Notes under the pieces: model-generated
What the model was told of the DNA's origin: nothing
Databases searched by the model: none
What the model saw: the letters and a program-made list of their open reading frames with translations, nothing else
In this document: positions 201 to 18,088 of the stretch, one piece after another
How the letters are laid out: every line of letters starts with the position of its first letter
Position numbering within the stretch: the stretch's first letter is position 1
From: a virus
Lineage: Duplodnaviria > Caudoviricetes
IMG/VR virus record: IMGVR_UViG_3300031949_000900
Coordinates: 1 to 31,941 of that record
Strand: one strand, 5' to 3'
DNA length: 31,941 bases
Translations under genes and position numbers: made by a program

Positions 201-1066
201 GGGGTGGCCTCCTGTGTCGGTGCGGGTGGGGTCCAGAGATCCGGCAGCCAGTCGGCCTCGGTCGCGTCGGGCCGGAGCCCGCGCTGGCGCGCCTGGCGAT
301 GCGCCCGGAGATACTTGACTTCGGCGAGCGCGGCATGGACGGCGTACTGGCTGCGCTCGAGCGCGATCAGGTGGTCGCTGAGCCGCTCGAAGCGCTGATC
401 CAGGAACTGCACTTCCTCGGCGACGACCGCGCGCGTCTCGTAGCCGTACCGGCGCACGGAGCCCTTGCCCAGCGCCGAGGCCTCGGGGATCGTGACCCGG
501 ATGCCGCGGCCGGCCGCCACGCCGCGCCAGAACTCGGCGTTCGGCCGCTGGTACTCCCATTCCTGGCCCTGGACCAGATCGATGCCGTACACGCCGATCT
601 CCTCGAACTGCCCGCACCAGATGCCCCAGGCGAGGAGATAGCCGAAACTCGACTCGAACCAGTCTTCCCCGCACGCGATGGTGGCCACCTGGTCGATCGG
701 GTAGCGGACCGACGTCGGCAGGTCCGGGTGACGCTCCAGCATGAACACCGGCACCGGACAGCGCTGGAGCCAGCCGAGATAGTCCGAGCCGGGAACCGTC
801 CCCGTGAGAAAGCTCCGCGGGCCACTCCGCGGGTGCATCTCGCACCAGAGATCGGCGCGCGGAATGGAGTGGTACAGCTCATTGAGCCCGGCCACGAGCC
901 ACGCCGAGGAGTCAAATGGGGCAGCGACCATCGAGGGGCCCGCGCCGACGATGGCGAGCTTCTTCCGCGCCGGCACCGCGGTCAGGCGCCCGGTATCGGC
1001 ATCCTCGATCACCACGCGCGCGGCGGCGGGGTGCGCCTGGATCTCGTAGTGGAGGGGGACCTTCAT
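197..1066 (-). CDS. Putative glycosyltransferase, GT29/GT42 sialyltransferase / Maf / MptE-like fold (289 aa)
   Basis: Start MKVPLHY at 1066 (ATGA overlap with HNH stop). Motifs KKLAIVGAGPS...GLNE and ESSFGYLLAWGIWCGQFEEIGVYGIDL resemble the two conserved blocks of CstII/Maf-type nucleotide-sugar transferases. C-terminal coiled coil. Confidence 0.6.
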   Translation of the reverse strand: MKVPLHYEIQAHPAAARVVIEDADTGRLTAVPARKKLAIVGAGPSMVAAPFDSSAWLVAGLNELYHSIPRADLWCEMHPRSGPRSFLTGTVPGSDYLGWLQRCPVPVFMLERHPDLPTSVRYPIDQVATIACGEDWFESSFGYLLAWGIWCGQFEEIGVYGIDLVQGQEWEYQRPNAEFWRGVAAGRGIRVTIPEASALGKGSVRRYGYETRAVVAEEVQFLDQRFERLSDHLIALERSQYAVHAALAEVKYLRAHRQARQRGLRPDATEADWLPDLWTPPAPTQEATP

Positions 1067-1620
1067 GCTGCCGCCTTCTTCCTCGCCCACGTCGCCCTCA
1101 CGCTTGCTTTCCAGGCCTCGCTCCGCGGGGTATACCGCTGATTCCGGCGCTGCTCTGATGCGGTTGCCCAACGGACATTCCCTGGCTCGTAGTGCCCGTT
1201 GTTGTCGATCCTGTCGAGCGTTCGGCCAGGCGGACAAGGACCGATATAGGCAAGGAATGCGGGGAAGCTTTCTCGCCACTCCTCGCACATCGTGATGCCC
1301 CGTCCGCCGTAGTCCTTCCAATCGGCGCCGCGGGGATTGGTGCACCGCCCCTTTGCGCTGAGCCATGAACGAAACTCACGGGTCCCGATGCGACCGCGCG
1401 TATGCCCGTGCGTGCGCCTCACGCGACCGATATTCTCGCGGAGCAGGCACTTGCAACTTAGGGTGCGGCCGCCGCGAAGTGCATCAGTCGCCACGAGCTT
1501 CTCTGGGCTCCCACAACCGCAACGGACCCACCAAGAGGACGGCCGCCTATCGCTCGGGCCTCGTCGGACCGCCGTCAAACGACCAAACGTCTGGCCAGTC
1601 AGATCAATGGCTTGGCCCAT
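1063..1620 (-). CDS. HNH homing endonuclease (185 aa)
   Basis: IDLTGQTFGRLT, CGCG, SCKC, YGGRGITMCEEW and TLDRIDNNGHYEPGNVRWAT..EQ..N are hallmark motifs of a common phage HNH family. Start overlaps the rSAM stop (TGATG). Confidence 0.92.
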   Translation of the reverse strand: MGQAIDLTGQTFGRLTAVRRGPSDRRPSSWWVRCGCGSPEKLVATDALRGGRTLSCKCLLRENIGRVRRTHGHTRGRIGTREFRSWLSAKGRCTNPRGADWKDYGGRGITMCEEWRESFPAFLAYIGPCPPGRTLDRIDNNGHYEPGNVRWATASEQRRNQRYTPRSEAWKASVRATWARKKAAA

Positions 1621-2630
1621 CACACGATCTCCGTGAATGAATGCGTCACGCACTCGCGACAGATTGGATTATCTGACCAGCGACCCGCTGCGTGCGTCTC
1701 CCGAAGAGACGCCATCGTCGGGCCGTTCCAAGCCGCCTGGACCCCGTCGGCAATGTGACCGACAGTCATCTTCGTGCCCCAGAAAGTGCAACAGCCGGAC
1801 ATCGCCCCGTCATGCCGAACGCTCATGCGCATGAAGGGCTGGGCGCAACGGAACTCCCGCGGTGCCCGCGTGCCCGTCGCGGCGAGCGCATCCTTGTCGG
1901 GACGGCCCGGCCACGGGTTGATGAAGGACTGGATCGAAAAGAAATCCGCCCGTCCGCGCCACTCGGTCATGAATAGATCGAGCTCGTCGGCATTGAGGGC
2001 CGTCTCGACGAAGCAGACGCCGAGCACGGGCAGGACCGCATCGCCGCGGCCATCGAGAAACTGTTGGACGTTCCGGCGCACCCGATCGAGATCCCCGCCC
2101 ACCCGGATCCGGTCATAGGTCGCCGGCGTCGCGGCGTCGATCGAGACCATCAGCCGCGTGAGGCCTGCGTCGATCAGGGCGTGCGCCATCCGGCGCGTGA
2201 GGAGCATCCCGTTCGTGTGGAGCATGACGTCGAGCACGCCGGCCTCCCGCGCGGCCCGGACGAACTCCGGGAGATCGGGGCGCAGGAGCGGCTCGTTGAC
2301 GCCGTTCAAGTTCACGGCGCGGAGCCCCTGCGGCACGCCCTCAGTCACGATCGTCCGGAACCGCTCGAGCGGCATCCAGTCACCCTTGGCGCCGTTCACG
2401 GCGTCGGGATCCGACCACGTGCACATGGGGCACCGGAGGTTGCATGAGCGGTTGAGCTCGACGTCGAGCTGGAGCGGGAACGGCCGCGGCACGGCCCCGC
2501 GCTTCCAGTCGCGGCGATACGCCCGAAAGGCCTCGGCGCGCGGGCCCAAAGCAGCGGCGATCCGCTCATCGAGGTCGACGAAGCCGACCAGCGCCGCGTG
2601 GTTCGAGCGCTCCTGGACGGCGAGGCTCAT
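1620..2630 (-). CDS. Radical SAM enzyme with SPASM/Twitch domain (336 aa)
   Basis: CNLRCPMC (CX3CX2C), GVNEPLL, HTNG, VSIDA. C-terminal CAQPF...DG...GCC...CREC auxiliary cluster motif. Start MSLAVQ at 2630 (ATGA overlap). Confidence 0.93.
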   Translation of the reverse strand: MSLAVQERSNHAALVGFVDLDERIAAALGPRAEAFRAYRRDWKRGAVPRPFPLQLDVELNRSCNLRCPMCTWSDPDAVNGAKGDWMPLERFRTIVTEGVPQGLRAVNLNGVNEPLLRPDLPEFVRAAREAGVLDVMLHTNGMLLTRRMAHALIDAGLTRLMVSIDAATPATYDRIRVGGDLDRVRRNVQQFLDGRGDAVLPVLGVCFVETALNADELDLFMTEWRGRADFFSIQSFINPWPGRPDKDALAATGTRAPREFRCAQPFMRMSVRHDGAMSGCCTFWGTKMTVGHIADGVQAAWNGPTMASLRETHAAGRWSDNPICRECVTHSFTEIV

Positions 2631-5055: not shown

Positions 5056-5090
5056 CAGTGAGCCTCAGAACCGCCGCCGCGGGATGCGGG

Positions 5091-5576
5091 CTACGCCGCG
5101 ACGACCGTCGCCCCCTCGTCGATTGCCGCGTATCGCAGGGTCCAGCGGAATCCGCCGGTATTGCTCGCGCCCGTGATCGCGTCGATCGTGCCCGGCGCGA
5201 CGATGGTCGGGGCCGCCTGCGCGGGCAGGGCCAGGCCCTCGACCATCGCATTCGCGAAGGTTCCGGTGATCCCGAGGAGCTTGCCGACGGCGAGCGCATT
5301 GATGTCGAGGGTCGCGCAGACGTCGACGGCCGCGCCGACGGTCGGATTGGCCGAGAGCTTGAGGGTGCAGGCCTGCGCCTGCACGACCGTGGTGATCTCA
5401 CCGAGGATCTGGGTGATCCTCACCCGCCCACCGGCCACGGTGAAGAGCGGCTCGGTCGCGCTCTGCGGCAGCGCCTTGGCCGCGCGCTGCACGACGGTTC
5501 CGAGCACGGCGTCGGCCGCGCCATCCGGCGCGAAGGCCACGTTGAGCCCAAGGAGTCGCACGTTCTGTGCACCCAT
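5091..5576 (-). CDS. Putative virion structural protein (decoration/head fibre-like, 161 aa)
   Basis: AGGAGG SD; A/T/G/V-rich beta-type composition; lies between MCP and adaptor. Confidence 0.55.
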   Translation of the reverse strand: MGAQNVRLLGLNVAFAPDGAADAVLGTVVQRAAKALPQSATEPLFTVAGGRVRITQILGEITTVVQAQACTLKLSANPTVGAAVDVCATLDINALAVGKLLGITGTFANAMVEGLALPAQAAPTIVAPGTIDAITGASNTGGFRWTLRYAAIDEGATVVAA

Positions 5577-5585
5577 GAGAGCCTC

Positions 5586-5816
5586 CTATCGGCGCCGTGT
5601 CCGGGCGGTGCCGCCGCCCGTTTCGACCGGCGCGTGAGCGGCCGCGGTCGGCGCGCCCGGGTCTGAGGACGGGCCGCCGGCGGGCACCGTCAGGACTTCG
5701 ACGAAGCCGGCGGCCTCGAGACTCCGCACGTTCTTCCAGGTCGGATCGGCCACGACCTCGCCGCGGCAATGGCGCTGCGGCCCGGCGCGGAAGTCGTGGC
5801 GGACCCGATAGAGCAT
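5586..5816 (-). CDS. Small hypothetical protein downstream of MCP (76 aa)
   Basis: Fills the gap after MCP; N-terminal YRV..DF...GEVV domain plus low-complexity tail. Confidence 0.6.
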   Translation of the reverse strand: MLYRVRHDFRAGPQRHCRGEVVADPTWKNVRSLEAAGFVEVLTVPAGGPSSDPGAPTAAAHAPVETGGGTARTRRR

Positions 5817-5825
5817 GGCGATGGC

Positions 5826-6830
5826 CTAGTCCACCGCGTTGGCGAAGAAGGCGCCCAGATCCGTGCCGACCACCTTCGGGTCGTAGCACGTGAGGGCCTG
5901 CACGAAGTCGGCCTTGACGCGCCGGTCGGGGATCCGCTCCTGCGCAATGTCGAAGCCGGTCGCGAAGGAGGGCCGGTAACCGAAGATGTAGCCGGCGGAG
6001 GGCGTCATGAGGGCCGGTCGCGGCGCGATATAGCCGAGCCAGCAGTGCTTGCCGTAGATCCAGTCGTAGGTCTCGCTCGCCGCGCCCTCGACGGAGGTGA
6101 TCTGGATCGAGCCGCCGATCAGCAACGTCGGCACGCGGAACGCGCGCGCTACGAGCTCGGGCGTCAGGACGGCGGCCTGGGTGTACTTGTACAACTCCTT
6201 GATGTCCGGGTGATCGGCGAGGACTTCGTAGACCATCTCGCTCATCACCATGGTGTTCGGCGTGAAGCCCGTCGACTGCTTGATCGCCATCCGGGCCGCC
6301 CGAACGTCCTCGATCGGCGTCGAGCCCGCATAGTCGTCCCACTTCGACACGCCGCTCACCGGGAAGTCCACGCCGCCGGTGTAATTCGTGTTCCAGACAC
6401 CGGCCTTGAAGTACGTCCCCACGACGTCGATCTCGCGTCCGAGCAGGAGCACGCGCGTGGTGAACTCGGCCACGGCGCGATCCCAGTTGAGCGCACTGTC
6501 CGCGTTGTCGCGCAGGTCCCAGCGGTCCGCGTACTCGAAGGCGCGGAACTGCGCCGAGTAGCTCGGCGTATTGTCGACGTCGAACTTCGACTGCGGCATC
6601 GCCGTGCCGGGCACCCAGAGACCCGACCGATTGCGGAAAAAGGTCTGCTTCGGGAACGCGAAGTAGCGGTCGGACTGCTTCTGCACGGTCACGATGGGGA
6701 ACCAGCGTGCCGCGATGAACTCCGTCTCGCTCTGGAGGTACGCCGTGGTGAGGTCCGTGAGCGGCTGATCGATGTGCACGTCGTGCAGGTCGGCCGCCTT
6801 CCTGATCTGGCTTGCGAATCCGGTCTTCAT
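5826..6830 (-). CDS. Major capsid protein (334 aa)
   Basis: VHIDQPLTDL..AY, FPIVTVQKQSD.Y, W.DY..S.PI.D, PNTMVM, L.DHPDI, PSAGYIF, G.FF.NAV: lambda gpE-like HK97-fold MCP family; follows cement and scaffold. Confidence 0.92.
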   Translation of the reverse strand: MKTGFASQIRKAADLHDVHIDQPLTDLTTAYLQSETEFIAARWFPIVTVQKQSDRYFAFPKQTFFRNRSGLWVPGTAMPQSKFDVDNTPSYSAQFRAFEYADRWDLRDNADSALNWDRAVAEFTTRVLLLGREIDVVGTYFKAGVWNTNYTGGVDFPVSGVSKWDDYAGSTPIEDVRAARMAIKQSTGFTPNTMVMSEMVYEVLADHPDIKELYKYTQAAVLTPELVARAFRVPTLLIGGSIQITSVEGAASETYDWIYGKHCWLGYIAPRPALMTPSAGYIFGYRPSFATGFDIAQERIPDRRVKADFVQALTCYDPKVVGTDLGAFFANAVD

Positions 6831-6849
6831 GCGTGTCGCCCCCTCGCCC

Positions 6850-7239
6850 CTACGGCAGTTTGACCAGCGACAGGCCGTTGACCGTCCCGGTGGCGATCTC
6901 GCCGGCCGCCCCGGCCGCCGTGAGGATGCGGCCGAGGATCAGATCGTTCTGCGCCGTCTTCGCCACGGCCTGGCCATCGGCCGAGGTCCCGTAGTTGTCG
7001 CCGACGGCGAGCGCCGCGTCCGCGACAAGCCTTGAGATCCCGAGCATGCGGACGATGGCCGCCTCGTTCGTCTTCGGCTTGTTCTGGAGCACGCCGATTG
7101 GCGCATCGCCCGCGCCGTTGCAGACGTTGACGATTCCAGTGGCGGTCATCTCCACCTGGTGGTACTGCTTCGCGGAGAGATCCGCGCCGGCCTTGAAGGG
7201 CAGGTCGATGATCGGGCCAATCTCGAACGCCGTCTCCAT
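6850..7239 (-). CDS. Capsid cement/decoration protein (DUF2190-like, 129 aa)
   Basis: AGADLS.KQY, IGVLQNKP, GIS..VA..AL.VGD, DGQAV, AAGAAGEI; immediately upstream of MCP. Confidence 0.85.
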   Translation of the reverse strand: METAFEIGPIIDLPFKAGADLSAKQYHQVEMTATGIVNVCNGAGDAPIGVLQNKPKTNEAAIVRMLGISRLVADAALAVGDNYGTSADGQAVAKTAQNDLILGRILTAAGAAGEIATGTVNGLSLVKLP

Positions 7240-7242
7240 GGC

Positions 7243-7989
7243 CTACCCCTCCTCGCGCTGCTCGCGCCGATACGCGGCGTAGAGCTCCGGCTCGCTTTCC
7301 CAGACCTTGACGCGCGCCTGCACCAGGGTCAGGCCCGTCGCCGACTTCGCCACCAGCTCCTTGGCCTTGGCGTCGACCTGCGCCGCCGCGGCGCCGCTCC
7401 CCTCCCCGCCGGCGCCCTTCTCGACGAACAGCGCCCCCGTCCGGATCGCCTCGTGGGCGCTCTTGAGCAGCGGCTCGAGCTTGGCCCAGGCCTCCGGCGC
7501 CTTCTCGGCGATGCCCTTGAGCACGACGCCGAAGTCATCCGCGTTCATGCCGGGGAGCGCGGCGAGCGTCTGCGCCTTGGCGATGAACTCCTTCGTCACG
7601 CGCTGCTCGCGCTCGGCCTTGGCGACCTTGCCGGCCTCCTCGGCGGCCTTCGTCGCGGCGGCGGCATCGGCCTGCGCCTTCTCGACGAGGGCGCGCGCGG
7701 CGGGCGTGAGCCCCTTGAGGACGTCCTCGGGCTTCTCCTCGGGGACCGGCAGCCGCGCGGTGAGCGTGGCCACCTGCTCCTCGGTGGGCTCGGTGATCCC
7801 GAGCTCGTCGAGCGCGGCGAGCACGGACTTGGCGATGGTCGCCTTGTCGGCCTTCGTGCCCGCCACTCCGGGCTTCGGCAGCCGCGCCTCGAGCTTGGCG
7901 ACCTGGTCCTCGGTGGGCTCGGTGAGGCCCAGCTCCTCGAGCGCGGCCAGGACGTGCTTGGCGATCTTCGTCTTGTCGGCCTTCTTCAT
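7243..7989 (-). CDS. Nested in-frame scaffold isoform (248 aa, MKKADK...)
   Basis: Internal ATG at 7989 preceded by AAGGAGG at 8-nt spacing, in frame with 8472. Confidence 0.6.
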   Translation of the reverse strand: MKKADKTKIAKHVLAALEELGLTEPTEDQVAKLEARLPKPGVAGTKADKATIAKSVLAALDELGITEPTEEQVATLTARLPVPEEKPEDVLKGLTPAARALVEKAQADAAAATKAAEEAGKVAKAEREQRVTKEFIAKAQTLAALPGMNADDFGVVLKGIAEKAPEAWAKLEPLLKSAHEAIRTGALFVEKGAGGEGSGAAAAQVDAKAKELVAKSATGLTLVQARVKVWESEPELYAAYRREQREEG

Positions 7990-8472
7990 CGCGGGAACCT
8001 CCTTGGGCGGCGCGGACAGCCCCGCCAGGGTCTTCCGGAAGAGGGGGAGCGCGGTGCGCTGCTCCGCCGTCAGGGTGCGTCCGGACTTGGTCACGGCGGC
8101 GCTGTCGTCGAACCAGTCGCCGATCGTGGCGTCCAGCGCGGTCACGAACTGCGCCATGGACGCCCGGAGGCGCGCGCCCTTGTCGGCCGCGTCGCTCTGC
8201 AGGATCGAGCTCAGCGAATCGCGCAGGGCCCAGAGCTGCTCGCACAGCTCGCCGTGGATCGCGTCGATCGACCGCGCCATGACCGCGTCGTCGAAGCTGA
8301 GCGGGGCGGCGAGGGGGTAGTCCTTCGCGATCCGGGCGAGGAGGGGAACAAGCACGGGCGCCACCGGGCCGCGTGGGTCCCGCTTGTAGAGCACGACCTT
8401 GGCTTTGGGATTCGCCGCAGCGTCCACGAGGCTGATCTCGTCGAGCTCCATCTTCGTGAGCCGGGTCGCCAT
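7243..8472 (-). CDS. Capsid scaffolding protein with N-terminal protease-type segment (409 aa)
   Basis: N-terminal LDEISLVDAAAN; long A/E/K-rich helical body; C-terminal PELYAAY motif; position before cement/MCP. Confidence 0.8.
   Translation of the reverse strand: MATRLTKMELDEISLVDAAANPKAKVVLYKRDPRGPVAPVLVPLLARIAKDYPLAAPLSFDDAVMARSIDAIHGELCEQLWALRDSLSSILQSDAADKGARLRASMAQFVTALDATIGDWFDDSAAVTKSGRTLTAEQRTALPLFRKTLAGLSAPPKEVPAMKKADKTKIAKHVLAALEELGLTEPTEDQVAKLEARLPKPGVAGTKADKATIAKSVLAALDELGITEPTEEQVATLTARLPVPEEKPEDVLKGLTPAARALVEKAQADAAAATKAAEEAGKVAKAEREQRVTKEFIAKAQTLAALPGMNADDFGVVLKGIAEKAPEAWAKLEPLLKSAHEAIRTGALFVEKGAGGEGSGAAAAQVDAKAKELVAKSATGLTLVQARVKVWESEPELYAAYRREQREEG
7747..7984. repeat. Two-copy internal repeat in scaffold (129-nt period)
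   Basis: KADKTKIAKHVLAALEELGLTEPTEDQVAKLEARLP vs KADKATIAKSVLAALDELGITEPTEEQVATLTARLP; copies at about 7747-7855 and 7876-7984. Confidence 0.9.
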
Positions 8473-8873
8473 CAGGCGGCGACCGCCTCGCGCTGGCCCG
8501 TCCCGTGGATGGAGAACCCGATGTACTGGCCGTCTTGCACGGCCTTCCAGACCGCATCGTCGTGGATCTTGAAAGCGACAACCCAGCCAACGGGGACTTT
8601 CGTCGCATCAATGGCGGGGAAGAGCGCCTTGACGATCTCGGGCGTGGTCACCAGCGACGCGACAAGCGTCGATACGCCGCGGCGCTCGTGCATCTCGCCG
8701 CCGTCGCGGCTCTTGAGCACGTAGTCGATCGCCGCGCGCTCGAGCTCGGCCGGCGCGATGATGTCGCCCTGAAGATCGACGATGGGTTGGCCGGCCTCCT
8801 CGACGACTGAAGCCCAGCCGTAGACCACGCGCTCCGGCGAGACCTTCGCGATGCGGAAATAGTCCCCGGCCAT
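8472..8873 (-). CDS. XkdF-like prohead serine protease domain (133 aa)
   Basis: RVVYGWASV, VDLQGD, GEMH (His), GWVVAFKI.D..VW..V..G.Y.GFSIHG (Ser). Confidence 0.88.
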   Translation of the reverse strand: MAGDYFRIAKVSPERVVYGWASVVEEAGQPIVDLQGDIIAPAELERAAIDYVLKSRDGGEMHERRGVSTLVASLVTTPEIVKALFPAIDATKVPVGWVVAFKIHDDAVWKAVQDGQYIGFSIHGTGQREAVAA

Positions 8874-8946
8874 GACGCGGCCAGGGTAGTCCCTGACTTG
8901 GGCCGGAAATCGATTAGGGGGCGATCTGGGAGGGGCTAGGGGTGGA

Positions 8947-9189
8947 TCAGGGCTGGATCTTTCCAGTTGACAGCAGGGCGCGATGTTGCCGCAACCAGCG
9001 TTCAACTTCCGGCCAGAATGCGAAGATGGGACCGTGCGGCGTGATTCGGAACAGCGGCAATTCCTCTTCGCGCCCGAGTTGCTTGAGCGTCTTCGGGCTC
9101 ATCCGCATGCGGCGGCCGAGATCCTCGACCGTCAAGAGATCGGTCACAGCGCCGCTATTCATCACCTCGCTGGGACGCTCGCCCCCCAT
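8947..9189 (-). CDS. Excisionase/MerR-like HTH DNA-binding protein (about 70-80 aa)
   Basis: LLTVEDLGRRMRMSPKTLKQLGREEELP.FRI...EVERWL is an HTH_17-type pattern; start at 9189 or 9162. Confidence 0.75.
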   Translation of the reverse strand: MGGERPSEVMNSGAVTDLLTVEDLGRRMRMSPKTLKQLGREEELPLFRITPHGPIFAFWPEVERWLRQHRALLSTGKIQP

Positions 9190-9191
9190 GC

Positions 9192-9953
9192 CTATGCGAG
9201 CGCCCCAAGGACGGCGTGCAGCGCGTCGCGCTTGATCTGACCTTCCGAAAGCCGGCACACGCGAAAGCCCTGCATCTCCAGCCAGCGATCGCGGCATCCG
9301 TCCGCCTCCCTCCGGGCTTCTTTGCGATGCCACCAGCCATCGCACTCGATGATCAGGCGGCGATCGGGGATCAGGATGTCGACAATGCATCGATCGCCAA
9401 CCACATACTGCGAAAGAAACTCGATCGTGAGCGTCTTCAGGATGACATGCACTGTGCGCTCTAAGCCCGACGGGCGCCGGCGGAGCGCGACCGCCGTAGC
9501 CTCAAGTCGCCGACGGCGTTCGCCGGACGACAGCGTCCGCCAATACTTCAGCATGCCGGCGCGCGCGCCCTCTCGGTGCCGATCTTTCGCACCAGGGGCC
9601 TGGAGTCCATGCTTTGTGCCCTCGCTAATCCGGGCTCGGACCTCAGGGCGCGCGAGCGCAAGTCGAATTGCTACGCTCCGGCGATCGATCACCTCTGGCG
9701 TCAATGCGCTCGCGGCGTACTGCATCGACCGGCCACGAAGCGAGGCGCTGATCGCATTCCGGTGTTCATCGGATAGTCCTCGGCCCAGATGGGCCGCGCG
9801 CAACTTGGCTCGCGTCTCCGTAGATACGACGCGCCCGGCATTCGCGCGGCGGAGGGCGAGCGCCGACCCTGGAGATGCGGGCCGGCCTTCCCGCTTCTCG
9901 CTCAACTTCCGACGATGCTCAGCGGATTGCTTACGGCCTTTTGGCCAAGGCAC
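9192..9953 (-). CDS. Homing endonuclease: NUMOD3-like repeats + DUF559/Vsr-like nuclease (253 aa)
   Basis: SAEHRRKLS, STETRAKLR, SDEHRNAIS repeats; C-terminal VDILIP...IIECDGWWH...D..RD.WL...GFRV.R; GAGGAGG SD before GTG. Confidence 0.85.
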   Translation of the reverse strand: MPWPKGRKQSAEHRRKLSEKREGRPASPGSALALRRANAGRVVSTETRAKLRAAHLGRGLSDEHRNAISASLRGRSMQYAASALTPEVIDRRSVAIRLALARPEVRARISEGTKHGLQAPGAKDRHREGARAGMLKYWRTLSSGERRRRLEATAVALRRRPSGLERTVHVILKTLTIEFLSQYVVGDRCIVDILIPDRRLIIECDGWWHRKEARREADGCRDRWLEMQGFRVCRLSEGQIKRDALHAVLGALA

Positions 9954-9974
9954 TTCCGCCTCCTCGAGTAAACT

Positions 9975-10865
9975 TCATGTCGTCGCCCGCACCGGTACGA
10001 GCCTCTCACTGCATCTGCACTGTACGTGAAGTAACGGTCCCTTCACCTGCCCCAGCGTAGGATGCTCATAGTAACCGTCGAGCGGCGCACGGCGCCCCTT
10101 CATCGGCTTGCACAACGGGCAGAGCCGCTCGTCAGCAGCGACCAGCCACTCACGCTCATCCTCCGTGCCATCGATCAGCCCCTGCTCTCGCGCCGTCGTC
10201 CACAGCTCGCGTTGGCCGTGATTTGCCGCCGCCAAAGTTTCGTTTCTGGCAATCACCAGCCCCCGCGCATTCAGCAGTCTGTCGCTGTACCGCTGCGCGA
10301 GCCGCGCCACGTCCGCCTCCGACCGCCCCGCCTCGAGGAGCGAGACCCGCAAGTTCTGCACCGCGCCCGCATCCCGCTCGGTCAGCCCGACCAGCGCGCG
10401 GATCTCCCGCGCGGCCTCCCGCGGTGGGACGCCGTCCGTGAACGCCCGGCCGATCACCGCTCGGATCGCGGCGCGCGTCTCCTCGCTCACCTGCGTCACG
10501 AGCGCGGCCGCATGCGCCGCCGCCCAGGCCACAGCGCGCGGATTCACGAGGTCGAAGCTCACCGCCACGGACACGCCGATCGCCGGCGCCGCGACGGCCG
10601 CGGCTTCGGTCACGAGCCCGGCCAGCGCCGAGGGGAGCGCCTGGCGCAGGGTCTCGGCGCCGACCGCGTCCCAGGGGATGAGCGCCTCGGCGGCGCCGAG
10701 ATCCCCGCGCTCCAGGGCGGCGGTCACCTGGGGCAGCACGATCCCGTTCACCGTCTCGGCGACGGCCTGGAGGAAGGCGGCGCGGATCTCGGGCTCGGCC
10801 GCATCGGCGAGCTGGTGGAGGAGGCGCCAGGTCTCGGGAGCCTTCGCGATCAGGACGGCCGGCAC
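9975..10865 (-). CDS. MuF / SPP1 gp7-like minor head protein (296 aa)
   Basis: GTG start after GGAGGAG; IARNET, REWL...DERLCPLC, HVQCRC motifs; follows portal. Confidence 0.9.
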   Translation of the reverse strand: MPAVLIAKAPETWRLLHQLADAAEPEIRAAFLQAVAETVNGIVLPQVTAALERGDLGAAEALIPWDAVGAETLRQALPSALAGLVTEAAAVAAPAIGVSVAVSFDLVNPRAVAWAAAHAAALVTQVSEETRAAIRAVIGRAFTDGVPPREAAREIRALVGLTERDAGAVQNLRVSLLEAGRSEADVARLAQRYSDRLLNARGLVIARNETLAAANHGQRELWTTAREQGLIDGTEDEREWLVAADERLCPLCKPMKGRRAPLDGYYEHPTLGQVKGPLLHVQCRCSERLVPVRATT

Positions 10866-11011
10866 GGACGCTCCTCCTCCTCGGACCGCACGCCGAGGAC
10901 CGGGATCGGGATCCTCGCCACCTCCACCCACCGCAGGCGACCATCCGCCTCGCGCCCGTCGAGGACGCGGACCTGCGCAAGCGTGACGGGCATGGGGGGC
11001 GGCGCGCTCAC
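10850..11011 (-). CDS. Small hypothetical protein (about 47-53 aa)
   Basis: Below the ORF-track cutoff; GTGA-coupled to the upstream ORF; MPVTLAQVRVLDGREADGRLRWVEVARIPIPVLGVRSEEEERPCRPS. Confidence 0.45.
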   Translation of the reverse strand: MSAPPPMPVTLAQVRVLDGREADGRLRWVEVARIPIPVLGVRSEEEERPCRPS

Positions 11012-11199
11012 GGCTCGAAGCGGTCACGGTGAGGGAGTATCGTGCGGTACCTGTTCCACCATCCACTCAGCGGGACGATGCCCGTCAGCATGCGCCAGCG
11101 GGCGCCGTAGCTGAGGCGGACAAAGAACCACTGGAGCATGGTGATGTTCAACCACCCCACCCATGTCAGGCCGAGGACGCGCGTGCTCGGCGGCTTCAT
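11008..11199 (-). CDS. Small Trp-rich hydrophobic protein (63 aa)
   Basis: ATGA overlap with the portal stop; hydrophobic stretch VLGLTWVGWLNITMLQWFFV. Confidence 0.6.
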   Translation of the reverse strand: MKPPSTRVLGLTWVGWLNITMLQWFFVRLSYGARWRMLTGIVPLSGWWNRYRTILPHRDRFEP

Positions 11200-12569
11200 C
11201 GACCGCGCGCCGCCAGTCGCCGCAGCGCCGCCGCCAGCGTCTCGGCATCGCCGCGCGCCCCCTTCGCTACTTCCGTCTCATCCGGCAGCGGCAGCTTGGC
11301 CGCGGCGAGCAGCGCGCGCTCGAGCTCCGGCGCGGGGAAGAGCGGCATGCCCGCCCCGGCGAGCTGAACGATGAAGTTCCCGAGCTCGGTGAGATCCGGC
11401 CGCGCCACGTCACCGTGCGCGAGGGTCGGGAGGCGATCGGTCGGCCACCCGTTGAGCCGCATCAGCCGCGGCATCAGGTGGCGGTTGACCGTCTCGGCGA
11501 TCACGTCGAGGAATCCCTCCATCGCGGTCCCGAACAGCTCCGTCTTCGTGTTCGTCAACGCGAAGCTCCCGACCTGCTCATGGCCGATGAGGATGAAGTC
11601 GGCCAGCGCGGTCATCGCGATCCGCGCATCGTAGCGCGCGATCACGGCCCCGACCTCGAGCGATTGCCGAGACGCCGACGCCACGAAGGAGAACGTAGCC
11701 CACTTCGGAAGGACGAGACCCATCTGCTCGTCAACGCGGACGTTGCGGACGATCTTTTCCAGCCGGGCGAGCAGCACGGCCGCGTCAGGATCGTTCGGGT
11801 TGAATACATCCGGCGCGTTCTCATTGAGGGTGATCACCGGGAAGCCCGCGCTCGACCGCTCGATGCCGATGGCCTCGATCTCGCGTAGGCGGACCTTGTA
11901 GCGCCAGGGGATGAACGCCGTCCGGAAGATGCTGCGGCCCTGCGGATTGCCCTTCGCGGCCGTCGTGCGAAAGAGCAGCGCCTTGTCGATCGGGATCTCG
12001 ACCCGCCGATAGATCGGCGCCGGCGCCTGGACCATCGCCTGGATCCCGCCGGCATCGTCGAAGCGCCACTCGACGAGCGAATCCTGCGCGCGGCCCGCGA
12101 GCTTGCGGAGCCCGATCTTGCCGTCGGTGAATTTCGAGCGACGGGTCGGGTCGACGACGTCGCCGCCGCGCCGCTTGTAGATGGTCTCCAGGTAGCTCCA
12201 CCCGTAGGGGAGCATCGTGAGCGCCTCGGACACGGTGTCCTTCCAGGATACCGACAGGTCGTCGAGGCAGGATTGGACGAAATCCGCGCGCTCGAGATCG
12301 TCCGGCTCCTGACTCGCCGGCTCGACGCGCCATGAGACCTGCCGCGCGAGCTGATCGATCGCGAAGAGGACCGCGCCGGCGACGTCGTCATGGATCATGG
12401 CGGTGTACTGCTGGATGCCGCGCAGCCCTTGCAAGTCGCGGAGCTGCTCCTCCAAAATCTGTCCGCCCGCGTAGCATAATCCTGAGCGACCAATTTCTAT
12501 CAAAGAGACGCCGGCCTGCCTCGCAGCTGGATCGGTCCCGTTGCGCTTGGTCATAGCCGACTTAGCCAC
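11196..12569 (-). CDS. Portal protein (Mu gp29/DUF935-like, about 457 aa)
   Basis: EIGRSGL, MLPYGWS..E..Y, GNPQGRSI.R, EAIGIER, GSFAL motifs; probable GTG start 12569 with GGAGG (alternative ATG 12554). Confidence 0.92.
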   Translation of the reverse strand: MAKSAMTKRNGTDPAARQAGVSLIEIGRSGLCYAGGQILEEQLRDLQGLRGIQQYTAMIHDDVAGAVLFAIDQLARQVSWRVEPASQEPDDLERADFVQSCLDDLSVSWKDTVSEALTMLPYGWSYLETIYKRRGGDVVDPTRRSKFTDGKIGLRKLAGRAQDSLVEWRFDDAGGIQAMVQAPAPIYRRVEIPIDKALLFRTTAAKGNPQGRSIFRTAFIPWRYKVRLREIEAIGIERSSAGFPVITLNENAPDVFNPNDPDAAVLLARLEKIVRNVRVDEQMGLVLPKWATFSFVASASRQSLEVGAVIARYDARIAMTALADFILIGHEQVGSFALTNTKTELFGTAMEGFLDVIAETVNRHLMPRLMRLNGWPTDRLPTLAHGDVARPDLTELGNFIVQLAGAGMPLFPAPELERALLAAAKLPLPDETEVAKGARGDAETLAAALRRLAARGR

Positions 12570-13437
12570 CAGCGTCCTCCAGTGCGGAAGCCAGGAGTCC
12601 GGTCGCATCCCGCCTGATCTCCATTTCGCTCAACCGCACCACCCTGAATCCTTGCGCGGTGAGCCAGGCATCCCGCAGACGGTCGGGCTTCGAGTTCGCG
12701 TGCCAGTGCTGTCCATCACATTCGATGATGAGATTACGATCTGGAACGAAGATGTCGACAATATACCGACCGATCACCCGCTGTGCTTCGAACTCAATAT
12801 CGAACGCCTCAAGCAACGAATGGACGGTCACCTCGATCGATGATGGATCGCGCCGGAACGCTGCGGCCAATCCCTCGAGGCGCCTTTGCTCGACTTCTGG
12901 CCTCGACAGTTGGGCCCGCATGCGAGGAAGGTTTGCCCTAAGTAAATCGATACGGGGTGCACGCCGAACAGGATCGGCCCATGCCCGCCTAAGCGATGCT
13001 CGCAGTTTCTTTAGAGCATAGGGCGAGTGAGCCGCCGTCTGGAGCCGTTCAACGTTCCCCGGCACGGCGCGCCACCGCTCGACACCGCGATGCAAGCGCT
13101 CCTGCGCCTCTGGCCGCGCCATCGCCCGAGCAGTCGCCGCACGATGCTTCGCCTTCACGTTCTGATCCGCCCATCTCCGAGCCTGGGACTCCGCAGCCTT
13201 GGCCCTCGCCTCAGGCGTTCGCATCGCCGCCAATCGACGCCGCTGGAACTCCGGATCTTGAGCGACACGCCGAACCCCCTCAACCCGCCTCCGACACCCA
13301 TCCCCCGACCGGACCGCGGCGTTCATGCGCTCCACGTGCCGAACACGGATCTCGGGATCGGCCAGGCGGCGCTTCATCGTGGCCTGGATCTTTAAGCGCC
13401 AGGCCTCATGCTCCGGCGAGCCCTTCAGGGGAGGCAT
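12562..13437 (-). CDS. Homing endonuclease: helical repeats + DUF559/Vsr-like nuclease (291 aa)
   Basis: Repeated W/A-x-D-P-E-x-R helices; C-terminal YIVDIFVP...IIECDGQHWH...D.LRD.WL...GFRVVR. Confidence 0.85.
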   Translation of the reverse strand: MPPLKGSPEHEAWRLKIQATMKRRLADPEIRVRHVERMNAAVRSGDGCRRRVEGVRRVAQDPEFQRRRLAAMRTPEARAKAAESQARRWADQNVKAKHRAATARAMARPEAQERLHRGVERWRAVPGNVERLQTAAHSPYALKKLRASLRRAWADPVRRAPRIDLLRANLPRMRAQLSRPEVEQRRLEGLAAAFRRDPSSIEVTVHSLLEAFDIEFEAQRVIGRYIVDIFVPDRNLIIECDGQHWHANSKPDRLRDAWLTAQGFRVVRLSEMEIRRDATGLLASALEDAGG

Positions 13438-13438
13438 G

Positions 13439-15004
13439 CTAGGACCTCCAGTAGCTGGGCGCGGCGAGCGCGGCACTCGAGTTCGCCCAGGCGAGCGCGG
13501 CGGCGGACGTCACCGGGGCCGGCCCCGCGACGAGCTGGTCCGCGAACGCCATCACGACCGCATCGCCGTCGTCCGTCGACCGACCAAGCCGCTTGACGAT
13601 CGTATCTTTCGACTCGATCTCGATCTTCCCGCCCGACACCACGCGCCAGCGCGGCGCCGTCAGATCCCCCGTGAGTCGGTCATCGGGCGGCAGCGCGACC
13701 GCATCGCCCATCACGGGATCGAGCCGCTCGCGGAGCATCCACCACGCGGCCGAGCGGAGGTTCACGAAGCCGAGCTCGCCGGACCGATCGGTGGCGTCCG
13801 TGCGCGCAGCCGCGTTGAACGCCTCGACGGCATGCTTCAGCTCACGCAGCCGATCGACCACCCCGGCCCCGAGTCCGATCACGTCGACGATGGCCACGCC
13901 GCCGCGCGCGGCCAGGAGCGCCCCGACCTGGCCGACGGTCGCCATCGTGTCCTGGCGGGCGAAGCGGCGCAGCTCGGCAATCACCTCGCCGATCCGCGGC
14001 GCCAGGACCGTGAGCGCCTCGCCGCTGCGCGCCACGTCGACGCCCAGACTCGTCAGGCGGTGCCCGTCCAGCGAGCCGCCCGGGGCCTCGTGCCACGCCC
14101 GCCAGCGCTCATTGGCCGCCTCCACCCAGGCGAGCGGGATCACGCCATCCGCATCGTCGGCCGCGAACTCGCCGAGCACGCGGTTCTGGTATACGCTCGA
14201 CGTCTCGCCCCACTGGCGCGCGCGCTGCGCCGCCCACTCCCGGCTGATCCGCCCCGCCCGGATCGCCTCGTCGAGCGTGACGTGGCGCGTCCACCAGTCC
14301 TCGAAGCCCGGGCGGCGGGCGTGGATCTCGTAGAACCGGCCGGTGGGCGGCCCGGGCGTCGAGATGCACACCGCGAAGGCTTCCAAGCCCGTGTCGGAGC
14401 CGGCGGCGGCGAACGCGCCCTCCAGCGCGTCCCACGTGCCGGAGGGAATCGCCTTGGCCTCGTCGAAGACGATGCCGATTGACGAGGCGTGCATGCCTTC
14501 GAGCATGGCCGGCAGATCCGAGGCCATCGCGAAGGCCTCGCCCGTACTGAGCTTGAGCGACAGCGTCAACAGCTCGGTCCGGTAATCGAACGGCGAGCGG
14601 CCGATGCGATCCCAACGCAGACGCGCCGCCCATTTTCTTAACTCAGGGAGGAGATAGTGAAGCAGCTGCCGCCAGGCAGATGCTGTCATCGCCACTTTCC
14701 AGTCCCCGAGCCCATCGCGGGTGAGCGCCCACCAGAGAATGATCCAGCTCGCCAGACAGCTCTTCCCGAGCCCGTGGGGCCCGCGCACCGCGATCCGCCG
14801 ATACGTCCTGAGCGCGGCGAGGATCTCGCGCTGGTAAGGGGCCGGCCCCTCGCCATCCGGCCACGTGAAGCACTCCCGGACAAATGCGGCCGGATCGTCG
14901 CGGTACGTCTGACGGAACACCTCCGACGACAACAGAAGCGCGTCCAGGTCCTGCAGGGACACCTCGTCGAGATTCGCTACCTGATCGGCTACAGATGCCG
15001 CCAT
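13439..15004 (-). CDS. terL: Terminase large subunit (521 aa)
   Basis: Q motif (PYQ), Walker A GPHGLGKS, Walker B IVFDEA, ISTP coupling motif, RNase H-like LGVDVA ... STDDGDA. Confidence 0.96.
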   Translation of the reverse strand: MAASVADQVANLDEVSLQDLDALLLSSEVFRQTYRDDPAAFVRECFTWPDGEGPAPYQREILAALRTYRRIAVRGPHGLGKSCLASWIILWWALTRDGLGDWKVAMTASAWRQLLHYLLPELRKWAARLRWDRIGRSPFDYRTELLTLSLKLSTGEAFAMASDLPAMLEGMHASSIGIVFDEAKAIPSGTWDALEGAFAAAGSDTGLEAFAVCISTPGPPTGRFYEIHARRPGFEDWWTRHVTLDEAIRAGRISREWAAQRARQWGETSSVYQNRVLGEFAADDADGVIPLAWVEAANERWRAWHEAPGGSLDGHRLTSLGVDVARSGEALTVLAPRIGEVIAELRRFARQDTMATVGQVGALLAARGGVAIVDVIGLGAGVVDRLRELKHAVEAFNAAARTDATDRSGELGFVNLRSAAWWMLRERLDPVMGDAVALPPDDRLTGDLTAPRWRVVSGGKIEIESKDTIVKRLGRSTDDGDAVVMAFADQLVAGPAPVTSAAALAWANSSAALAAPSYWRS

Positions 15005-15861
15005 GCTGTTCTCCTGACAATCCGGGAGACCATGCTAGCGTTCACGCCGTACGCCTCACCGAGCTTGACCAACGTCATACCGCCAGCCGCGTACCTCGAC
15101 CGGATCTCCACGACGTTCGCCTCGGTTAGCTTGGCACGGCCATTGCCCGCCCCCCGGTTCATCTCTCGCGTAGCGGTGCGCAGCGATTCGGGCGGCGACC
15201 ATCCGGCCTTCGCCGCGCGCATCTTGGCAAGCGTCGCCTCAGTGAATGTCCGACCGCGATGAGCAGCGCCGATCGCGGCCCGATGCGGCGCGCTCTTCGG
15301 CACACCACGGCGAGCCGCGCTCAGTTTCCGTCTGGTTTCTAGGCTATGACGCCGACCAACCGCCTTGACACGGAGCACGGCGCGAGCCGCCTCCGGCATC
15401 CGCCAGCCTCGGCGCGCGCGCTCCTGTTGCGCGAGCCTCACTTTCCTGCGCGTCTCCTCTGACCACACGCGCCCAGTGCCCGCGAGGCTGATCTTCTTGC
15501 GCGTTTCGGCAGACACCGGCGCGCCGACTCGGCCAGGACCACCAATCGCAAGATTCAGTGCGGGCCGAAGCTCGGCAATCCAGCGGCGCTCTGCTGCCGC
15601 CCAGCCCCCAGAGCCCACCGAGCACACGATCGATTCGAGAAGGATCATCTCCGGCCGAACGTTCGCACGGCGCAGTACTCCAACCCATGCAGCGACGGGC
15701 GTCTGTTTCCGACGCCAGTCTTTCAGGTGCCCGCGCAGACGCTCCTCGTGATCCTTCGCTTTCCCGACGTACTGAATCACGCCGTCCCGCGGATCGCGCA
15801 GCGCGTAGATATAAGCGCCGATTTCGCCATCCTGTGTCTTGCGCTGCGCGGTGCCGGTCAT
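14989..15861 (-). CDS. GIY-YIG homing endonuclease with NUMOD3 repeats and C-terminal HTH (290 aa)
   Basis: YIYALRDPR...YVGK...R..GH, E..WI, LN; S.ETRxK repeats; AKLTE..V.EIR...YGV..S.V..IV HTH. Confidence 0.9.
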   Translation of the reverse strand: MTGTAQRKTQDGEIGAYIYALRDPRDGVIQYVGKAKDHEERLRGHLKDWRRKQTPVAAWVGVLRRANVRPEMILLESIVCSVGSGGWAAAERRWIAELRPALNLAIGGPGRVGAPVSAETRKKISLAGTGRVWSEETRRKVRLAQQERARRGWRMPEAARAVLRVKAVGRRHSLETRRKLSAARRGVPKSAPHRAAIGAAHRGRTFTEATLAKMRAAKAGWSPPESLRTATREMNRGAGNGRAKLTEANVVEIRSRYAAGGMTLVKLGEAYGVNASMVSRIVRRTAWRHL

Positions 15862-16475
15862 CGCTCGTGACCATTCCGCGCGAGCGCATCCGCGGGTCGC
15901 CTGAGCGTCATCAAGGCCTCGATCCGCCGGATACGCTCCTCGGTCGTCAGCATGACGTTGACGTTACCGGCGGCATTGATGACCGTCGTTGTTCCACCTA
16001 CCGGCGGCGGCTCCTCCTCCGCGAGCTTCAGAATCTTGACCATCTCCCGGAGGGCGCCGAGCTTGTCATGCAGCTTGATCGCCACGCCGTGCTCGGTATC
16101 GCGCACCTCCGCGATGGCCGACGCCGCGTGATCCGGGATCTCGGTACTCGCCTTGAGCGTCACCGTGCCATTCCACGAGGCCACGTCGCGAAGGTCGGAG
16201 AACCCGATCCGCGCCAGCTCCGCCAACACGCGCGCCGGCCTTACGTCAAGCGCCACGCAGTAATCATCGATCTTCGCCTTCACGACCGGCGTATCGAGGA
16301 TCTGCGCGCCAGCGGCCCGCGATTTCGTCGAGTAGCCTGCATCGCGCGCCGCTGCGAGCGCGTTGCCGCGAATACCGGGAGGGCCGGAGAGATAGCTGAG
16401 GAGAAAGGCGCGCTGGCGGAGCGTGAGGGCATCGGGCACTCGACGTCGGGCCCGCCCGCGGTGACGTGTCGCCAT
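15858..16475 (-). CDS. terS: Terminase small subunit (205 aa)
   Basis: GAGGAGG SD; LTLRQRAF...Y...NA..AA..AGYS, RVLAELARIGFSD, IKLHDKLGAL. Confidence 0.92.
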   Translation of the reverse strand: MATRHRGRARRRVPDALTLRQRAFLLSYLSGPPGIRGNALAAARDAGYSTKSRAAGAQILDTPVVKAKIDDYCVALDVRPARVLAELARIGFSDLRDVASWNGTVTLKASTEIPDHAASAIAEVRDTEHGVAIKLHDKLGALREMVKILKLAEEEPPPVGGTTTVINAAGNVNVMLTTEERIRRIEALMTLRRPADALARNGHER

Positions 16476-16563
16476 CAGCCTCCTCGCGCATCGACAGGAG
16501 TGGAGGACATCGCGGCGGGGCGGGGTGGAGGACACCGGGGTGAGGCGGAGCGGCTTGCGGAGC

Positions 16564-16594
16564 ATTCTACCGCGATCGGGCCCCGCGGTGTCAA
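16564..16594 (-). promoter_or_regulatory. Predicted late promoter TTGACA-N19-TAGAAT with dyad in spacer
   Basis: -35 at 16594-16589, -10 at 16569-16564; ACCGCG-N9-CGCGGT inverted repeat spanning the spacer; about 90 nt upstream of terS. Confidence 0.65.
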
Positions 16595-16971
16595 GGCGGC
16601 TGGCCCACGGACAGTGCAGACGATCCCCGAGCAGACCCTTTGCACACTCCCCTCGCCGGAGAGATTTCCAGCTGTCTCAAGGCTCGGATAGCCGCACTCC
16701 GCTTTACCGTCAGGTGAGGCAGGATCGCGCCAAGTACAGCTCCGAGGGCCCGCCTCCTGCAGTACCACTTGACGGCGGCCTTGCGGTGACCGCGTGGCCC
16801 CTGCCAGGTCACGGTGCTCTCTGGAAAGACCTGTGCGAGCTTTCTGATCGGCTCCTCGTCGGTCATGACGACGCGGAGATGGATGCGCCCTCCGTAGAAC
16901 CCGATCGATCCCTCGCCATCGATCAGGCCTGCAGCCCAGGCAACATTAGTGCAGACGTCTGGATTCATCAT
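16591..16971 (-). CDS. Single-motif LAGLIDADG endonuclease (126 aa)
   Basis: AWAAGLIDGEGSI, V.MTD, ILPHLTVKR; ATGA-coupled start. Confidence 0.85.
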   Translation of the reverse strand: MMNPDVCTNVAWAAGLIDGEGSIGFYGGRIHLRVVMTDEEPIRKLAQVFPESTVTWQGPRGHRKAAVKWYCRRRALGAVLGAILPHLTVKRSAAIRALRQLEISPARGVCKGSARGSSALSVGQPP

Positions 16972-17258
16972 GGCCACCCGCCGGCACCGGGACATGTCTG
17001 CACCTCGCCCCCCGCCGCCTCGAACGGCCAGCGCCCCGCCCGCTCCTGCGCGGCCTGCCACGTCGCGAACCAGGCCGCCGTCGCCTCCGGGGTCGCCGCT
17101 TCCGCCTCGCCCACGAGCGCCGAGAGCGCCTGGAAGCGCGGGACGGCGACCCGCGCCCAGCGCGCCATCGCCGCCTCCCCCTGCGCGGCCTTCTCGGCCT
17201 CGAGGGTCACGGCTTGGAGCAGGCGATCGAGCAGCGCCGTGTATTCGGCCTCGGTCAT
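16968..17258 (-). CDS. Hypothetical helical protein (96 aa)
   Basis: ATGA overlaps at both ends; GC3-rich codons. Confidence 0.7.
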   Translation of the reverse strand: MTEAEYTALLDRLLQAVTLEAEKAAQGEAAMARWARVAVPRFQALSALVGEAEAATPEATAAWFATWQAAQERAGRWPFEAAGGEVQTCPGAGGWP

Positions 17259-18088
17259 GGCACGCCGGCGCCGCCGGCCAGGACACGGAGCTTGATCTGC
17301 TCGCGCTCGGCCTTCGTCGGGTACGTCCCGGGCGACGCATGGAGTTTACAGGGACGGCGCCAGTGCTCGGGAAGGCACCGTTCTCGGCCCGGTGCGGGGC
17401 AGCCGCAGGGCTGCTGCCAGGCTGAGGACATGGCGTGCTGGCCGTAGGTGCTGTCGAGCTGATCGCCCTCCTGGGTCAGCCGAGGACCGTTGTGGTATGC
17501 CGAGGCCGGATAGGTGCCGTCCGGGTTGGGGGTGGCTCTGAGCCTCTCTTCTTTTCTCCTCTGCCCGGCAGTGGCGGGCGCGCTGGCGTCGACGCCGGTT
17601 GTCGCATGGGAACCTACGGAGGGGCTTTGCTTTTCAAAGGACGGGACGGGACGGGACGGGGGGGGCGTTACATTTCCGTTACCGTACGAATCCGTAACGC
17701 CGTTCGTAACGCCGTTAGTAACATCATCTGTAACGCCACTCGTAACGGTGTTACCTCTAGCCTCTCGCCACTTCCTGACCCGCTCTCTCACCGCCTTCCG
17801 TTCTGCCTTCACCTGTGTGGAGCTCGGCTGGTACTCAGCATAGTCATGGACCCGGTACCCCCCGTTGGTCAGTTCCCACAGACGGAGCCCGACGAGGAGC
17901 CTGGCGATGCGCTGCGGTGCCTGGAGTCCGGGGGCCAGCGTCGAGATGGCCGATGCTGGGATGAACCCGTCAGTCAAGTGTTCACCGCAGTAGCACAAGC
18001 CGCAGACGAACAAGTCGCGCCCGAGGGGCCCGGCCTGGAGTGCCTTCGGGTGTCGCGGAAACCGATCGTCAATCTTCGCCCACGCCAT
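17255..18088 (-). CDS. Phage replication initiator (277 aa)
   Basis: MAW.KIDD.F..HPK...TDGFIP...HDY.EYQPS...R.RK.R N-terminal domain; internal iteron-encoded VT repeats; PSRPVPS linker; adjacent to DnaB. Confidence 0.82.
   Translation of the reverse strand: MAWAKIDDRFPRHPKALQAGPLGRDLFVCGLCYCGEHLTDGFIPASAISTLAPGLQAPQRIARLLVGLRLWELTNGGYRVHDYAEYQPSSTQVKAERKAVRERVRKWREARGNTVTSGVTDDVTNGVTNGVTDSYGNGNVTPPPSRPVPSFEKQSPSVGSHATTGVDASAPATAGQRRKEERLRATPNPDGTYPASAYHNGPRLTQEGDQLDSTYGQHAMSSAWQQPCGCPAPGRERCLPEHWRRPCKLHASPGTYPTKAEREQIKLRVLAGGAGVP
17641..17754. repeat. Iteron array / probable replication origin
   Basis: GTAAC at 17694, 17706, 17718, 17730, 17742 (12-bp period); inverted GTTAC at 17667, 17678, 17750; (ACGGG)x4 at 17641-17660. 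Confidence 0.8.

Follow-up and report, generated by a model that had tools for sequence, protein, structure and literature searches.

Nuclease-facing codon shifts in a GC-rich soil phage point to probable homing genes that travel with foreign gene ends

The window analysed here, a single 31.9-kb contig of a GC-rich soil phage (31,941 nucleotides; IMG/VR record IMGVR_UViG_3300031949_000900, positions 1 to 31,941; Duplodnaviria, Caudoviricetes), carries nuclease genes among its conserved head-assembly genes, several of which contain patches or tracts of rare, A/T-ending codons. Along the minus strand the order is TerS, a GIY-YIG nuclease, TerL (the terminase large subunit), a DUF559 nuclease, the portal gene, a small open reading frame (ORF), a MuF-like gene and a DUF559/NUMOD3 nuclease, with three further nuclease-like ORFs at 1063-1620, 16591-16968 and 30315-30947. 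All nuclease genes are intergenic ORFs with uninterrupted neighbours, which marks them as free-standing, outside any intron or intein. The fraction of codons ending in G or C (GC3) is about 0.88 in core genes vs about 0.70 in the nucleases. A first-pass annotation had proposed that short runs of rare codons at conserved motifs, on the gene side facing a homing endonuclease, are synonymously recoded sites that protect the phage from its own enzymes; the codons it quoted are present at the positions given, on the minus strand, and the genes they face do belong to nuclease families (GIY-YIG plus NUMOD3, two DUF559, HNH). The features are as follows.

14989..15861, minus strand: free-standing GIY-YIG nuclease with NUMOD3 repeats in the TerS-TerL interval (Pfam GIY-YIG E 1.2e-5, above cut-off; NUMOD3 E 1.3e-9; A/T-ending codons 0.29)
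13439..15004, minus strand: TerL (PHROG 2 E 2.8e-33; relatives 50-65% identical)
14612..14686, minus strand: TerL rare-codon patch, codons 107-131 (A/T-ending 11/22 vs 31/370 beyond; z 5.2; L119 in 1/69 relatives)
14405..14515, minus strand: TerL Walker B region with ordinary codons (protein divergence rank 1/70 family members)
12562..13437, minus strand: free-standing DUF559 (Vsr/EDxHD-like) nuclease in the TerL-portal interval (Pfam DUF559 E 9.2e-16; family profile resembles PDB 3r3p, E 1.9e-9)
11196..12554, minus strand: portal protein (Pfam Portal_Mu E 1.2e-33)
12432..12506, minus strand: portal nuclease-facing block, comprising the patch 12477-12506 (EIGxxG) and then unusual residues up to codon 41 (A/T-ending 8/10, p=0.0003; change point codon 28-38; C27 in 0/96 and Q37 in 0/97 relatives)
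9975..10868, minus strand: MuF-like head morphogenesis gene, start codon uncertain (Pfam Phage_Mu_F E 9.4e-6, below cut-off; PHROG 3517 E 6.5e-46)
9978..10280, minus strand: MuF 3' tract, beginning at roughly the IARNE motif and running up to the stop; it peaks at 10221-10253 and again at 10005-10043 (A/T-ending from 0.05 to 0.29; p=0.0005)
9192..9953, minus strand: free-standing DUF559 nuclease with NUMOD3, directly 3' of MuF (Pfam DUF559 E 2.4e-12, NUMOD3 E 9.9e-8)
1623..2090, minus strand: radical SAM/SPASM gene 3' tract with a weak peak at 1659-1676 (A/T-ending from 0.08 to 0.24; p=0.002)
1063..1620, minus strand: free-standing HNH nuclease after the radical SAM gene, start possibly at 1653 (PHROG 374 E 2.7e-54; no Pfam match)

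Rare codons were scored over 10 codons at a time and compared with within-gene synonymous shuffles in 26 window genes. The strongest patches lay at portal codons 17-26 (p=0.0003) and TerL codons 115-124 (p=0.002), followed by MuF codons 206-215 (p=0.012) and 276-285 (p=0.017) and the 3' end of a gene labelled gt197 here (p=0.048); the remaining 22 of the 26 genes, including radical SAM (p=0.47), were not significant. After correction for 26 genes, the portal alone passes clearly and TerL is borderline, its signal being lost with the gene's own codon table and restored with the pooled table of its relatives (z 5.2, p=0.001). By a plain count of A/T-ending codons radical SAM becomes marginal (p=0.039). 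Neither a promoter nor conservation as such accounts for the patches: the single promoter-like site within them (9/12, in the portal patch) compares with 0.6 expected, a chance level, and rare codons show no significant general preference for conserved positions (Spearman -0.07 and -0.05).

Of the four genes with proposed patches, portal and TerL have short patches, and MuF and radical SAM are better described as having long tracts facing a nuclease. In MuF, A/T-ending codons number 11/189 before codon 206 and then 6/11, 12/56 and 6/13; in radical SAM they run 13/158, then 23/112, 4/15 and 5/6. These tracts span about 100 and 155 codons (p=0.0005 and 0.002), although the radical SAM change point is ill-defined (anywhere in codons 154-280), and the only relative of that gene, at 54% identity, is uninformative. 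The MuF tract has nearly the composition of the nuclease that it adjoins (0.29 and 0.30 A/T-ending). When the 90 facing codons of each gene end were compared at p<0.05, 4/9 nuclease-facing ends were shifted vs 1/16 control ends; the shifted ends were those of MuF, radical SAM, portal and ParB. The TerL patch is discrete and lies 300-380 bases from the GIY-YIG gene. A separate candidate for a fifth tract is ParB (28840-30318, minus strand), which adjoins the HNH gene at 30315: 0.11 of its codons up to codon 209 end in A/T and 0.03 of those beyond, and there is a dip around codon 187.

The window patches are not purely synonymous. At the conserved TerL site 119, tryptophan occurs in 58 of 69 relatives and the window's leucine in one; portal C27 and Q37, adjoining the patch, occur in none of 96 and 97 relatives, respectively; and IARNE, with N209, is found in 1 of 102 MuF genes. 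Only portal residues 20-26 keep the family consensus, despite 8/10 A/T-ending codons. Elsewhere in TerL, the Walker B region (14405-14515, minus strand) is more divergent in protein sequence than in any other of the 70 family members yet has ordinary codons; it is possibly an older exchanged block.

The codon shift recurs beside nucleases in other phages (L numbers denote loci of relatives). A DUF559 alignment scan returned 45 loci, of which 21 were dropped (17 short, intein-embedded or duplicate-looking, 3 by length and 1 being the L041 contig), leaving 24 independent loci for the test. A shift to rare codons was found at the facing end of 12/43 genes adjacent to the nuclease vs 8/104 non-adjacent genes (Fisher p=0.003), a shift concentrated in GC-rich loci (5/8 vs 3/22). 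The three MuF genes with an adjacent DUF559 match (L041, the window and L211) rank 1-3 of 110 non-redundant genes for the 3' A/T shift, and two of the DUF559 loci, found later via the nuclease and with MuF in front of it (L405 and L421), have the same 3' tract (z -3.8 and -4.9). Change points in the five MuF genes lie -9, -5, +27, +1 and +14 codons from the IARTE motif; where the nuclease ORF is complete (four genes), A/T-ending fractions of tract and nuclease are 0.29/0.30, 0.70/0.63, 0.40/0.35 and 0.75/0.72. Descent of these nuclease-adjacent 3' ends from a single lineage was considered and rejected: they do not rank as mutual nearest neighbours, and we therefore regard them as independent events. 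Two other candidate signals were discarded. The MuF motif H-V-x-C-R-C seemed a diagnostic immune allele in 2/102 genes, but a pattern scan gave 120 matches, with a nuclease directly behind in only 2 of the 73 that had at least 900 bases downstream (L284, which is the L041 contig, and L317) and in the short L392. L266, L272 and L277 have the top TerL amino-acid excess, all with HNH genes, and form one clade, hence one event.

Two natural pairs of relatives bear on what such a tract represents. In the first, L041 carries a DUF559 gene after MuF, whereas home-made profiles found none in L095 and L034. The L041 MuF protein is 87% and 77% identical to those of L095 and L034 before IARTE and 46% and 44% identical just after it, whereas the two nuclease-less proteins are 77% identical to each other before the motif and 74% after. 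In L041 coordinates, DNA homology to L034 ends at 7386-7398 and is picked up again at 8712; the nuclease gene ends at 8704, eight bases earlier. In the second pair, L121 has an HNH gene upstream of the portal. Over portal codons 1-30, which include EIGxxG, it departs from L045 by 11 amino-acid changes and 5 silent ones, and over the following 150 codons by none; four alleles without a nuclease are only 0-1 residues apart there. The motifs concerned, MuF IARTE and portal EIGxxG, are the same motifs flagged in the window. In both pairs the nuclease accompanies a foreign gene end, not a silently edited one. Donor sequence between the putative cut site and the nuclease is seen in L041 and L121, and in the window by composition only (MuF, portal and radical SAM); such composition is not seen between the nuclease and the patch of the window TerL. 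The nuclease is optional, as most portal, TerL and MuF relatives, like L034 when compared with L041, have an empty slot. The portals of L121, L142, L042, L045 and L178 are near-identical mosaics, in which silent-saturated blocks stand beside difference-free ones, suggesting frequent short recombination tracts.

We consider it probable, from sequence comparison, that these patterns reflect intronless homing with co-conversion, in which a nuclease carries along a resistant gene end of foreign origin, delimited at a conserved motif. The GIY-YIG, DUF559 and HNH genes would be free-standing homing nucleases, each cutting the adjacent core gene of a co-infecting, nuclease-less relative at a conserved motif; repair would then copy everything from the break through to the far side of the nuclease gene. 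The cassette would consist of the nuclease and its own version of the neighbouring gene's end: the 3' third of MuF from about IARTE, the 5' end of the portal gene through EIGxxG and probably the 3' part of radical SAM. Such an end would share its codon composition with the nuclease gene, not with the GC-rich host gene, and would owe its resistance to being diverged foreign DNA that has both silent and amino-acid differences. The patches of the first-pass annotation would then be peaks and borders of replaced blocks. Its idea of a resistant allele fits the nuclease-facing shifts at family-conserved motifs in the window and at independent loci. The codon shift, its replication beside DUF559 genes and the block replacement in two pairs are observed; that the window's own blocks arose by homing, which nuclease would cut which motif, and cleavage and resistance themselves are inferred. 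The TerL patch fits a homing cassette less well; an older scar, left where a motif has been attacked repeatedly, is the likelier account.

Several observations weigh against homing with co-conversion or limit the evidence for it. A/T-ending dips occur in two window genes with no adjoining nuclease, the replication initiator (17255-18088, p=0.011) and the gene at 7243-8472 (p=0.013), while TerS, gt197 and the TerL 3' end face nucleases yet are unshifted. Between its nuclease and its patch, TerL (codons 14-106) is not clearly shifted (12/87 vs 31/370, p=0.15) and its protein sequence is ordinary. Portal and TerL hold other divergent segments without codon dips, so that rare residues alone are weak evidence. 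No close nuclease-less relative of the window was present in the collections searched (best portal 52%, TerL 65%), and replacement is shown in relatives only. AT-rich loci give no signal (5 up and 2 down of 33 vs 10 and 6 of 79). The MuF metric was chosen after the window and L041 were known, which leaves L211 alone as a fresh case in the ranking; the L211 nuclease is a 73-residue antisense fragment, and that of L041 is split over two frames. Among GC-rich relatives (a GC3 filter kept 54/70 TerL clusters and 50/100 portal clusters, and L109, the window's own record, was dropped), the portal motif region is significant in 11/49, many of them within the gene's first codons. Dips in relatives without the nuclease, which the first-pass annotation had counted as evidence against itself, occur in part: the portal motif is patched in 10/44 relatives that lack a nuclease within 2 kb; for the TerL motif the figure is 6/53, comprising 6/45 without a nearby nuclease and 0/8 with one within 1.5 kb. 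Nuclease detection used home-made profiles and Pfam on 150 of 228 TerL-flanking ORFs, by which families can be missed.

The patched nuclease-less relatives do not refute homing, since resistant alleles can, by analogy with marker exclusion, outlive or out-spread the nuclease. They do refute the view that an enzyme's site can be given from a GC3 dip alone, a prediction further undercut by dips that mark intein sites (below) and by the lack of significant enrichment of sharp 10-codon patches beside nucleases (5/43 vs 4/104, p=0.12). A GC3 dip may mark a contested motif, which need not be the neighbouring enzyme's site. The expected relation of GC3 to nuclease proximity is recovered for facing ends in the window and in the 24 loci, and is missing from the AT-rich ones. 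The probable source sequencing run, the single soil metagenome run that contains the contig, offers no further test: its Logan contigs match the window letter for letter over 4694-17400 (0 mismatches) and are not independent data, and a nuclease-less allele was not found among them, an absence that proves nothing there.

Of the alternatives, the proposal of the first-pass annotation, silent recoding of the resident gene in place, selected to escape its own nuclease and with each short patch as a recognition site, survives best, and we regard it as unlikely. Portal residues 20-26 and the discrete TerL patch suit it best, and any silent change away from an optimal G/C-ending codon would yield a rarer one. 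However, both natural pairs are amino-acid-rich block replacements, the MuF and radical SAM shifts extend over 100-155 codons with, in MuF, the composition of the nuclease gene, and sharp patches are not significantly enriched beside nucleases.

Generic causes appear less probable still. A/T-rich 5' ends favouring translation initiation could account for the portal and chance for TerL and radical SAM, with ordinary phage mosaicism through crossovers at conserved motifs as a further cause, nucleases merely sharing recombination-prone slots. The frequent portal signal among relatives, often in the first codons, the mosaic structure of nuclease-less portals and the two dips away from any nuclease in the window agree with this, as does a mean MuF 3' shift that is slightly positive without nucleases (log odds 0.26). 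Yet the portal patch begins at codon 17, after only 3/15 A/T-ending codons, where the same codons of other window genes have 0.10-0.15; the nuclease gene is where replaced blocks end, and its composition is followed by that of the tracts; and adjacency has an effect (p=0.003). That the patches are instead marks left by inteins passing through vacant insertion sites, independently of the free-standing genes, is very improbable: TerL family inteins do insert after K81 and N415 (mapped in 33 long relatives), where the dips of relatives cluster (L221, L228, L238, L247; L236), an L227 MuF intein falls at the window Q283/C284 position inside the 10008-10037 patch, one MuF peak only, and inteins have been reported in terminase, portal and minor capsid genes (bioRxiv 10.1101/2025.01.02.630785), but no insertion maps to TerL codons 105-131 in those 33 relatives (only proteins >912 residues were searched), K81 and N415 of the window TerL show no dip, the one intein observed in a portal is near YGWS and away from EIGxxG, and tracts of 100 codons ending at a nuclease are left unexplained.

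Homing with co-conversion is a known mechanism; the enzymes and the putative targets would be new. Free-standing T4 Seg/Mob endonucleases (SegF-gene 56, SegG-gene 32, SegE, SegB and MobE) are described as agents of intronless homing (PMC2988022, PMC2330249, PMC12724721), and replacement of the cut site by donor sequence, with co-conversion from distant sites, has been described (PMC12724721, PMC2988022). As here, the T4 nuclease gene lies between conserved genes; its cut site is described as lying hundreds of bases off in a neighbour, where co-conversion swaps the recipient site for donor sequence. The present case differs in being a GC-rich soil phage with DUF559/Vsr-like nucleases beside head-assembly genes, in the visibility of the tract through codon composition and in being known from sequence alone. 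Resistance of the nuclease-bearing allele is not universal, as T4 SegB is reported to cut its own genome in vitro (PMC2330249). In homing-endonuclease islands of ICP1 and other phages and for free-standing HNH genes of Skunavirus, nucleases likewise cluster beside terminase and structural genes, with extra polymorphism reported in neighbouring core genes (PMC10448857, PMC12724721); unlike the present work, the passages on these systems describe no placing of block borders by codon composition, and the word 'synonymous' appears 0 times in either main text. Titles and abstract openings in the literature, covering few subscription journals, contained nothing that placed the targets of free-standing nucleases by codon composition and nothing on DUF559 nucleases beside MuF. 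PMC3424549 is further related work.

The two window DUF559 genes (9192-9953 and 12562-13437) are 52-55% identical in the nuclease domain only, a likeness that suggests domain shuffling and retargeting within one genome. NUMOD3 is detected in the former and not, by Pfam, in the latter, which has no close relatives in viral contigs; two proteins share a domain-only likeness with it. In six aligned DUF559 domains D39, E50, D52 and H57 are invariant within a Vsr-like C-terminal domain. The match to 3r3p is made with the family profile (E 1.9e-9), a single sequence being weak (E 0.054); D39 and H57 line up with alanines in the 3r3p chain, which would correspond to the D196A/H213A positions (PMC3239194). 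An N-terminal NUMOD-type DNA-binding region with a C-terminal Vsr-like domain is the described arrangement of the EDxHD family (I-Bth0305I, with free-standing homologs, and Hef; PMC3239194). I-Bth0305I is, unlike the window nucleases, intron-encoded, cutting recA at the intron site. The gene at 14989-15861 combines an N-terminal GIY-YIG domain with a NUMOD region, as in GIY-YIG homing endonucleases.

More tentatively, free-standing DUF559/EDxHD-like nucleases might be a widespread class of phage homing genes directed at head-assembly genes and moving with an alternative gene end, MuF IARTE and portal EIGxxG being recurrent cut or crossover points for unrelated nucleases. In GC-skewed phages, a compositional change point beside a nuclease could then predict its target within about 100 bases, and homing could drive exchange of structural-protein termini. 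If the main reading, homing with co-conversion, is right, uncharacterised DUF559, GIY-YIG and HNH phage nucleases would gain concrete target regions, and selfish nucleases would swap portal and MuF protein ends between phages.

Free-standing DUF559 genes with NUMOD or zinc-finger-like N-termini (L403-L427) are common between structural genes of AT-rich phages, and two short DUF559 fragments that lie antisense to MuF and converge on its stop codon (L211 7550-7768, minus strand; L392 72-275) are perhaps decayed nucleases. A DUF559 domain suspected within an L318 intein was unconfirmed by Pfam, and the long MuF forms comprised seven fusions and no intein families. Inteins are frequent in the TerL family (P0154-P0184), mainly at two sites that follow K81 and N415; in the window TerL the residue after N415 is leucine, not cysteine, which would block splicing. 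Upstream of TerS, the sixth nuclease-like ORF (16591-16968, minus strand) has a LAGLIDADG-like motif, AAGLIDGEG, and a PHROG 5046 match (E 2e-14), with no Pfam match and no facing shift in TerS. In the replication initiator (17255-18088, minus strand) the A/T-ending run falls in a low-complexity repeat linker (codons 108-137) that is non-conserved and adjoins no nuclease. The region 197-3313 holds the radical SAM/SPASM gene, a methyltransferase and an unannotated 289-residue gene, all after the head genes.

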